Notes under the pieces: generated by a model
Database searches by the model: none
Told to the model about the DNA's origin: nothing
What the model saw: the letters and a program-made list of their open reading frames with translations, nothing else
Made by a program: the position numbers and the translations under genes
Shown: positions 61,132 through 63,363 of the stretch, piece after piece
Numbering within the stretch: position 1 is the stretch's first letter
Layout of the letters: each line of letters begins with the position of its first letter
From: Escherichia coli
GTDB taxonomy: Bacteria > Pseudomonadota > Gammaproteobacteria > Enterobacterales > Enterobacteriaceae
Length of the DNA: 64,000 nt
Reading direction: 5' to 3' (one strand)
Assembly: GCF_016903815.1 (NCBI RefSeq)
Contig: NZ_CP069973.1

Positions 61132-62484
61132 ATGACTAAACACTATGATTACATCGCCATCGGCGGCGGCAGCGGCGGTATCGCCTCCATCAACCGCGCG
61201 GCTATGTACGGTCAGAAATGCGCGCTGATTGAAGCCAAAGAACTGGGCGGCACCTGCGTGAACGTCGGCTGCGTACCGAAGAAAGTGATGTGGCACGCGG
61301 CGCAAATCCGTGAAGCGATCCACATGTACGGTCCGGATTATGGTTTCGATACCACTATAAATAAATTCAACTGGGAAACGTTGATCGCCAGCCGTACCGC
61401 CTATATCGACCGTATTCATACTTCCTATGAAAACGTGCTCGGTAAAAATAACGTTGATGTAATCAAAGGCTTTGCCCGCTTCGTTGATGCCAAAACGCTG
61501 GAGGTAAACGGCGAAACCATCACGGCCGATCATATTCTGATCGCCACCGGCGGTCGTCCGAGCCACCCGGATATTCCAGGCGTGGAATACGGTATTGATT
61601 CTGATGGCTTCTTCGCCCTTCCTGCTTTGCCAGAGCGCGTGGCGGTTGTTGGCGCGGGTTACATCGCCGTTGAGCTGGCGGGCGTGATTAACGGCCTCGG
61701 CGCGAAAACGCATCTGTTTGTGCGTAAACATGCGCCGCTGCGCAGCTTCGACCCGATGATCTCTGAAACGCTGGTCGAAGTGATGAACGCCGAAGGCCCG
61801 CAGTTGCACACCAACGCCATCCCGAAAGCAGTAGTGAAAAATGCTGATGGTAGCCTGACGCTGGAGCTGGAAGATGGGCGCAGTGAAACGGTGGATTGCC
61901 TGATTTGGGCGATTGGTCGCGAGCCTGCCAATGACAACATCAACCTGGAAGCCGCTGGCGTTAAAACTAACGAAAAAGGCTATATCGTCGTCGATAAATA
62001 TCAAAATACCAACGTTGAAGGTATTTACGCGGTGGGCGATAACACGGGTGCAGTGGAACTGACACCGGTAGCAGTTGCAGCGGGTCGCCGTCTCTCTGAA
62101 CGCCTGTTTAATAACAAGCCGGATGAGCATCTCGATTACAGCAACATTCCGACCGTGGTCTTCAGCCATCCGCCGATTGGGACTGTTGGTTTAACGGAAC
62201 CGCAGGCGCGCGAGCAGTACGGCGACGATCAGGTGAAAGTGTATAAATCCTCTTTCACCGCGATGTATACCGCCGTCACCACTCACCGCCAGCCGTGCCG
62301 CATGAAACTGGTATGCGTTGGACCGGAAGAGAAGATTGTCGGAATTCACGGCATTGGTTTTGGTATGGATGAAATGTTGCAGGGCTTCGCGGTGGCGCTG
62401 AAGATGGGGGCGACCAAAAAAGACTTCGACAATACCGTCGCCATTCACCCGACGGCGGCAGAAGAGTTCGTGACCATGCGTTAA
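61132..62484 (+). CDS. gor: glutathione reductase
   Basis: 450-aa track ORF; GGGSGG FAD motif and CVNVGC redox-active disulfide. Confidence 0.97.
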
Positions 62485-62490
62485 ATGTTA

Positions 62491-62521
62491 AAGGGCAAAG
62501 AGTGGTGTGCTCTTTGCCCTT
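62491..62521. terminator. hairpin between convergent gor and dinQ
   Basis: Perfect 12-bp stem aagggcaaagag-tggtgtg-ctctttgccctt. Confidence 0.7.
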
Positions 62522-62537
62522 AGCTACGTTTCCGCTA

Positions 62538-62621
62538 TCAGTTCAGAAGCTGAAGCAGGAAGCGGATCAGTTCCAGCAGCGCAATTAACGCCCCAAGAAC
62601 GATGATTGCTTTATCAATCAC
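62538..62621 (-). CDS. dinQ: DinQ small hydrophobic toxic peptide (27 aa, GTG start)
   Basis: Minus-strand translation (V/M)IDKAIIVLGALIALLELIRFLLQLLN read from sequence; below the 60-aa track cutoff. Confidence 0.8.
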   Translation of the reverse strand: MIDKAIIVLGALIALLELIRFLLQLLN

Positions 62622-62814
62622 CCGTTTTCTCCATGCTATGGAGTGAGAATGCATCCGCTTACTCATCCACTGCCTGTCACGGCGCATGTCTCATTGTTAG
62701 ATAAGAACTCTCTCACTCCGGCCAGAGCATCAGTTAACGGCACCACCCGTACTTCTGACCAGGACTTTGAAAGCGTTTATGCGCATTACCAGAGTGAAAA
62801 TGCCTCAGAGCTAA

Positions 62815-62830
62815 CTGGATAATCATACAG
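62815..62830 (-). promoter_or_regulatory. putative LexA box upstream of dinQ
   Basis: Minus strand tactgtatgattatccagtt fits CTG-N10-CAG consensus. Confidence 0.5.
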
Positions 62831-62892
62831 TACATGCAGGTTATAAAACCAGCACGTCCTTGCAATAGTTTCAGTATGGTATTAGCATTGAT

Positions 62893-62978
62893 GCGTTAGA
62901 TGATGGCATTCTCACTCCAACCAGAGCCACCAACTCAGGGCTGGAAAGTAAAAAACCGACGCGAAGTCGGTTTTTTTA
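62893..62978 (+). ncRNA. agrA: agrA-like small RNA with intrinsic terminator
   Basis: TTGCAA -35 / tatggt -10 upstream; body gttagatgatggcattctcactccaaccagagcc...; terminator aaaaaccgacgcgaagtcggttttttt. Confidence 0.55.
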
Positions 62979-63127
62979 CGTCCGGATTCGGACAAGGCTT
63001 GGTACGGCAGCGACCCGATGAAAGTATATAAATCCTCTTTCACCAACATGTATAGCAAACTGTCCCTTCTCCAGCTGAAGAAATCGCTAATTCTTGCAAT
63101 GTTAGCCACTGGCTAATAGTATTGAAC

Positions 63128-63211
63128 TGTTAGATAAGAGCTCTCTCACTCCAGCCAGAGCCACCAACTCAGGGCTGGAAAGTAAAAAACCGACGCAAAG
63201 TCGGTTTTTTT
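63128..63211 (+). ncRNA. agrB: agrB-like small RNA antisense to the dinQ mRNA leader
   Basis: Body gttagataagagctctctcactccagccagagcc nearly identical to plus strand 62694-62730 (dinQ leader region); own promoter and terminator. Confidence 0.55.
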
Positions 63212-63363
63212 ACGTCCTGATTCAGACCTCCTTTCAAATGAATAGCCAACTCAAAATTCACACCTATTACCTTCCTCTGCACATACACATTCGTTAAACC
63301 ATATATGTTTTTGACTTATCCGCTTCGAAGAGAGACACTACCTGCAACAATCAGGAGCGCAAT

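Follow-up and report, generated by a model that had tools for sequence, protein, structure and literature searches.

The 879-nt intergenic region between gor and arsR in the Escherichia coli sequence analysed here almost certainly contains, as judged from its sequence, the chromosomal type I toxin-antitoxin locus dinQ-agrAB in intact form. The analysed stretch of DNA, hereafter called the window, comprises 64,000 nt of contig NZ_CP069973.1. The intergenic region occupies positions 62485-63363 of the window, where it separates the stop codon of gor (62484) from the start codon of arsR (63364), and the two flanking open reading frames (ORFs) of 450 and 117 aa encode glutathione reductase and ArsR, respectively. 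The dinQ-agrAB locus has already been published and was characterised experimentally in K-12 (Weel-Sneve et al. 2013, PMC3567139; Kristiansen et al. 2016, PMC5066626). Its published anatomy combines a dinQ promoter that contains a LexA operator with two divergent small RNAs and a 27-aa peptide that is translated from a GTG codon. There is nothing new about the window copy, which is ordinary in this strain. The original prediction had taken the region for a known, SOS-regulated type of toxin/antisense RNA locus, and this was borne out by the RefSeq annotation, the NCBIfam model NF041472, the Rfam family RF02891 and the published anatomy. Even the end coordinate that had been assigned to the locus, 63211, is the position to which the annotated 3′ end of K-12 agrB maps.

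The check that had been proposed, an alignment with the described locus, gave 97% column identity to K-12 MG1655 over the intergenic region. The gene order in MG1655 is gor, dinQ (b4613), agrA (b4712), agrB (b4713), arsR, and this placement between gor and arsR is the same in the window, in E. coli strain 7/2 and in K-12. Strain 7/2 has the same 879 nt at 100% identity. Of 5426 complete E. coli genomes, 5422 gave a match to the intergenic region, and the annotation of the ORF in them reads 'damage-inducible type I toxin DinQ'. RefSeq annotates dinQ in both strain 7/2 and K-12, and the ncRNAs agrA and agrB at homologous positions in K-12; in the RefSeq genome of strain 7/2, agrA and agrB are not annotated. 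Automated pipelines thus annotate dinQ-agrAB only in part. Compared with K-12, the position, gene order, strands, DinQ peptide and LexA operator region are identical, and the two AgrB-family RNAs have the same promoters and terminators; the two loci differ by strain-level substitutions only. No feature was found in the window sequence that contradicts the identification. Among type I toxin-antitoxin systems of E. coli the locus is a textbook case, for which transcripts, structure probing and phenotypes have been published. The importance of the identification beyond annotation is small. The coordinates of all features are collected in Table 1.

Table 1. Features at the dinQ-agrAB locus within the window (positions refer to the 64,000-nt stretch)
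Feature	Position	Strand	Details
Hairpin between gor and dinQ	62491..62521	.	AAGGGCAAAGAG / CTCTTTGCCCTT; 12-nt arms, 100% complementary
Full-length (+1) dinQ transcript	62486..62815	-	~330 nt; published numbering mapped, exact 3′ end inferred
dinQ CDS (DinQ V)	62538..62621	-	27 codons + stop, GTG start at 62621; translation, NF041472, RefSeq
GUG start (G195)	62621	-	mapped
Shine-Dalgarno (SD) GGAG	62632-62629	-	published G184-G187
Leader element 4	62634-62629	-	AUGGAG
Leader element 3	62649-62638	-	UUCUCACUCCAU
AgrB target in dinQ leader, G88-A119	62697..62728	-	leader copy of the triplicated element, core 62695-62728
Leader element 2	62722-62710	-	GCCGGAGUGAGAG
dinQ processing site +44	62772	-	mapped from published numbering
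Leader element 1	62800-62788	-	mapped
LexA operator	62813..62832	-	TACTGTATGATTATCCAGTT; core CTG 62815 to CAG 62830; reaches +1
dinQ +1	62815	-	mapped from published numbering
agrA promoter-like hexamers	62860..62888	+	TTGCAA-17-TAGCAT; annotated 5′ end 7 nt downstream
agrA small RNA	62896..62979	+	RF02891, 99.7 bits, E 6.5e-18; K-12 ncRNA agrA at homologous position
agrA terminator hairpin	62950-62976	+	AAAAAACCGACGCGAAGTCGGTTTTTTT; 11-bp hairpin between A-run and T-run
Relic of gor 3′ coding region in agrA-agrB spacer	63002..63054	+	83% identical to 62217-62269
agrB promoter-like hexamers	63094..63122	+	TTGCAA-17-TAGTAT; pattern search
agrB antisense small RNA (antitoxin)	63130..63213	+	RF02891, 108.1 bits, E 9e-20; K-12 ncRNA agrB
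agrB terminator hairpin	63184-63210	+	near-twin of AAAAAACCGACGCGAAGTCGGTTTTTTT; 11-bp hairpin, A-run/T-run flanks

Translation of the 27-codon ORF, which had been read directly from the minus strand and assigned to DinQ, yields VIDKAIIVLGALIALLELIRFLLQLLN. Indeed, this peptide is identical to K-12 DinQ, while the coding sequence carries two synonymous differences. The peptide scored 54 bits against the NCBIfam equivalog NF041472, for which the cut-off is 30. A GGAG motif sits 7 nt upstream of the GTG start codon, and the ORF is nested in a 49-aa ORF on the same strand that begins with ATG (62687..62538). DinQ is a hydrophobic peptide of 27 aa with a single helix. It has been described as residing in the inner membrane and as toxic on over-production (PMC3567139, PMC5066626); on the strength of the identity to K-12, DinQ would be toxic and AgrB protective in the present strain as well. 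We also observed a 59-aa ORF on the plus strand (62643-62822), opposite the dinQ leader, which some E. coli genomes in RefSeq list as a 'hypothetical protein' (e.g. at 973-1146 of locus L005, described below). This ORF is probably an annotation artefact over the 5′ UTR of dinQ.

The candidate LexA box that had been noticed upstream of the ORF, a CTG-N10-CAG motif, turned out to be the published operator. The box (CTGGATAATCATACAG) is located at 62815-62830. When the surrounding 20-mer (62813-62832) was compared with the LexA consensus (TACTG-(TA)5-CAGTA), 15 of the 20 positions matched. This is the best score in the window, and it is tied with that of one AT-rich site without the CTG/CAG arms. 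The operator region is identical to that of K-12, for which a HI of 4.83 was published, and dinQ is both repressed by LexA and induced by DNA damage in K-12 (PMC3567139, PMC5066626). A second, weak LexA operator with a HI of 13.82 has been published for K-12 dinQ. Since no difference from K-12 exists anywhere in the promoter region, this second operator must be present here too. A candidate -10 hexamer, TATGAT (62827-62822), was recognised inside the stronger operator.

Taken singly, such features could conceivably be no more than chance occurrences in an intergenic region, the small ORF and the repeats included. Indeed, ORFs of 27 codons are common, with 37 ORFs of at least 20 aa within 2 kb, and the bare CTG-N10-CAG box occurs 27 times in the 64-kb window, which is not significant by itself. 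An origin by chance is nevertheless so improbable as to be negligible, and it has already been refuted: the Rfam matches have E-values of 1e-18 to 1e-19, the peptide matches an NCBIfam equivalog, the locus is conserved across ~5400 genomes, and experiments on it have been published.

To place the dinQ transcript and its regulatory elements on the window, we used the published landmarks, namely the AgrB target G88-A119, the SD G184-G187 and the start codon G195, all of which fell on the expected bases. All four leader elements, as well as their pairings 1:2 and 3:4, are present in the window sequence. From +29 to +178, the leader is identical to that of K-12. The only substitution inside an element is C28U in element 1, where the pair with G94 is kept as G:U, and a further difference, C179A, lies in the loop of the SD hairpin. 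Downstream of the coding sequence, the arms of the hairpin at 62491-62521 show compensating changes between the two strains, with A/T here and T/A in K-12 (alignment columns 13 and 31). Folding of the +1 RNA reproduced both the 1:2 duplex and the closed SD hairpin. By minimum-free-energy/thermodynamic prediction, the pairing probability of the SD was 0.87 in the +1 fold and 0.72 in the +44 fold, so that no clear opening of the SD was seen in the latter. The published SD switch was thus not reproduced by thermodynamic prediction alone, and it therefore rests on the published K-12 SHAPE data (PMC5066626). At its 3′ end, dinQ has been reported to terminate a few nucleotides beyond the gor stop codon (PMC3567139), and the hairpin at this place is probably a bidirectional terminator shared by the convergent genes gor and dinQ.

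The two small RNA genes are both located beyond the dinQ +1 site, on the opposite strand and upstream, and neither overlaps the toxin mRNA. Both matches to the Rfam family AgrB (RF02891) are full-length and exceed the gathering score of 40 by a wide margin, and they bear out the designation of the two copies as agrA-like and agrB-like. The annotated 5′ ends of K-12 agrA and agrB map to 62896 and 63130. Together, the two genes form a tandem pair of 114 nt each (62880-62993 and 63114-63227) that is 88% identical and spaced by 234 nt; the small RNAs were previously described as 'presumably tandemly duplicated' (PMC3567139). Each copy had been predicted to have its own promoter-like hexamers and a strong terminator. 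Both were recovered for each gene, the terminators as 11-bp hairpins. The pattern TTGCAA-N17-TAGYAT gave just two matches in 64 kb, those of agrA and agrB, versus 0.02 expected. A generic promoter and terminator scan listed neither the promoters nor the terminators of the agr genes. The promoters were missed because their hexamers score 8/12, which is below the threshold; in the case of the terminators, the stem had probably absorbed the runs of A and T. These elements were found instead by a specific pattern search and with the Rfam structure. The fold z-score was -4.95 for AgrB, which adopts the Rfam structure, and -2.27 for AgrA, which does so less well. Relative to K-12, four positions are changed in the antisense part of agrA and one in its terminator loop. 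The confirmation shows that a first reading of the raw sequence could recover a gene of 27 codons along with two genes for small RNAs.

A repeat search identified a 34-nt unit that is present in three plus-strand copies, at 62695-62728 in the dinQ leader, at 62894-62927 (74%) and at 63128-63161 (94%). The original prediction had the leader region from about 62694 to 62760 triplicated. The three copies were indeed found, but the proposed range extends too far in the 3′ direction, as the conserved core measures 34 nt and not ~67 nt. Beyond 62728, the only similarity came from cmscan, whose alignment stayed below threshold (22.7 bits, E 0.66). A longer homology, joining the agrB promoter region to sequence on the upstream side of the leader copy, was also considered (blastn, 63085-63161 versus 62656-62728, 74% over 77 nt). 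It was not relied on, because identity outside the 34-nt core is only ~58%, with gaps.

With the dinQ leader, AgrB can form 32 Watson-Crick pairs and one G:U pair over the 34 nt (duplex energy -62.8 kcal/mol), whereas AgrA can form 25 Watson-Crick and four G:U pairs (-45.4 kcal/mol). The corresponding K-12 RNAs form 33 (AgrB) and 26 (AgrA) Watson-Crick pairs, and the published complementarity in K-12, over ~31 nt, is 30/31 for AgrB and 25/31 for AgrA (PMC3567139). The difference in AgrB is due to an A-to-G change at 63140, which turns one Watson-Crick pair into G:U. Both copies had been put forward as antisense elements. For AgrB this holds, as it is a demonstrated antitoxin in K-12, but AgrA is a degenerate paralogue. 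One could argue that the locus in this strain has two functional antisense RNAs instead of one plus a relic: AgrA keeps its promoter pattern, its terminator and the Rfam structure, its predicted duplex with the leader is the one given above, and in K-12 both small RNAs lowered the level of the primary, inactive dinQ transcript (PMC3567139). We regard this as unlikely. In K-12, AgrA neither changed the SHAPE reactivity at the SD nor blocked translation of the +44 form in vitro (PMC5066626), and deletion of agrA caused no UV sensitivity (PMC3567139, PMC5066626). Moreover, the AgrA of the window is no better matched to the leader than its K-12 counterpart. We therefore favour AgrB as the antitoxin and AgrA as its degenerate paralogue.

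All sequence elements of the published mechanism are conserved in the window, and the mechanism would be expected to apply to this locus. As published for K-12, LexA bound to the operator that overlaps the dinQ promoter, which is identical here, would repress transcription, and DNA damage would relieve this repression. The primary dinQ mRNA would be translationally inert, since pairing of elements 1 and 2 would leave elements 3 and 4 free to form the hairpin that hides the SD. According to the published model, removal of the first 43 nucleotides would then yield the +44 form, in which element 2 would pair with element 3, the SD would be exposed and the 27-aa peptide would be translated from the GUG codon. 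Over-produced DinQ, again as published, would depolarise the membrane, lower ATP, and affect nucleoid compaction and recombination. AgrB, reported to be transcribed constitutively from the other strand at a distance of ~500 bp, would pair through its 5′ ~32 nt with G88-A119, for which the complementarity was seen here, and this would re-close the SD hairpin and lead to cleavage by RNase III. In K-12, neither of these two effects is exerted by AgrA. Going by the K-12 results, AgrA, as a tandem duplicate with weaker complementarity, would probably offer no protection against the toxin in this strain either.

Decay of the locus is common in E. coli. The segment with the dinQ promoter and LexA operator was present in 4610 of the 5426 complete genomes and absent from the other 816 (~15%), which retain dinQ and an agr match; over the whole set, the agr match was kept in 5420 of 5426. 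Single-agr alleles with a LexA box also exist, an example being the chromosomal locus L005. A deletion allele, L003, was found on the chromosome of E. coli Ecol_AZ161 (1638-1972). Here, an AgrB-family gene (91.6 bits) is fused to the leader, 76 nt from the GTG, and neither a LexA box nor a promoter-like site was found in this allele. Its DinQ carries the substitution L15Q, which places a polar residue in the helix, and arsR-arsB are missing. L003 is probably a dead allele. In view of the frequency of such promoter-less alleles, the window copy might likewise be present but decayed and non-functional. This is very improbable, however, as the window has the promoter, the LexA box, the four elements, the SD, the GTG and an unchanged peptide, each of its two agr genes still has a promoter and a terminator, and its leader shows no difference from K-12 between +29 and +178. 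An intact locus thus remains our reading of the window copy.

The origin of the deletion alleles was indicated by two plasmid loci. The locus of pS34_2 (L004, 1984-2071) equals that of pS13F (L006, 977-1251) minus exactly 187 bp. The junction lies inside a direct repeat whose two copies are the target in the toxin leader and the antisense gene's 5′ end, and both divergent promoters are lost. We had considered that the cis-overlapping agr layout of L003 and L004, in which agr is located 76-77 nt from the start codon, might be ancestral. The L006/L004 pair ruled this out: the short layout is a product of repeat-mediated deletion in which both promoters are gone. Of six plasmid loci examined, four have the long, non-overlapping layout. 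The short layout recurs on the chromosome, on pS34_2-type plasmids and on the IncK2/Z plasmid L010, and it arose more than once.

In five other long-layout dinQ/dql loci, the leader target is located 74-79 nt from the start codon and co-varies with the 5′ end of the agr gene, which lends comparative support to antisense pairing. Target and agr 5′ end agreed at 31/32 positions on the IncI plasmid L008 (1010 and 1198), at 28/32 on plasmid L006 (977 and 1164), and at 30/32 in the single-agr chromosomal locus L005 (1021-1052 and 1220-1251). The two sequences are similar within a locus, and they are different between loci. In L005, agrA-like sequence is present in the dinQ leader, suggesting that the repeats have undergone gene conversion.

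Another trace of rearrangement was found in the agrA-agrB spacer, where a 53-nt relic of the gor 3′ coding region was detected by pairwise blastn (E 3e-11). The relic is also present, and more decayed, in K-12, and it finds no mention in the K-12 dinQ papers (PMC3567139, PMC5066626). Its presence suggests that a larger segment, extending into gor, took part in the agr duplication, and that the agr pair arose by duplication of a larger gor′-dinQ-agr unit. Together, these observations lead us to a proposal in which we place about even confidence. The target in the leader and the 5′ end of agr would be direct repeats that flank both divergent promoters and predispose the module to repeat-mediated self-inactivation; this would have happened repeatedly, giving a promoter-less fused allele that is present in ~15% of E. 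coli genomes and that arose on plasmids independently, and the gor relic would reflect the larger gor′-dinQ-agr duplication. The deletion alleles and the co-varying target and antisense repeats are of modest interest for the decay or diversification of type I modules.

The dinQ-agrAB locus resembles tisB/istR-1, an SOS-induced type I toxin-antitoxin of E. coli, in several respects (PMC5066626). Both encode a small inner-membrane toxin that is repressed by LexA, and in both an inert primary mRNA is activated by 5′ processing, at +42 for tisB and +44 for dinQ. In both systems, moreover, the antisense RNA is divergent and non-overlapping, its target is the leader and not the SD as such, and cleavage by RNase III is involved. 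The peptide and RNA sequences of the two systems are unrelated, however. Furthermore, the action described for IstR-1 is the blocking of a standby ribosome site, AgrB re-closes the SD hairpin, and the duplicated antisense gene belongs to dinQ.

The architecture is shared with the dqlA/dqlB-agrB loci, which encode DinQ-like toxins on plasmids and chromosomes of enterobacteria and in which an AgrB-family RNA gene (47.8-70.6 bits) is likewise divergent from a DinQ-like ORF. The loci compared here differ from dinQ-agrAB in that they are plasmid-borne and have a single agr copy, and in their peptides (e.g. MINLLIIVLRAV...), for which ~41% identity was reported. The scan for a LexA box on plasmids covered a single dql intergenic region, that of the deletion allele L004 and not those of the long-layout loci L006-L009, and detected none there. 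For one plasmid dqlB-agrB locus, experiments have established a function as a toxin-antitoxin and plasmid-stability module (PMC12317039). Matches to loci of the dqlB type with AgrB-family RNAs were obtained in 3614 plasmid records; conjugative plasmids of Escherichia, Salmonella, Klebsiella and Enterobacter account for 3212 of these. On the IncI plasmid L008, a Hok/Gef gene is located ~800 bp from the dqlB-like locus.
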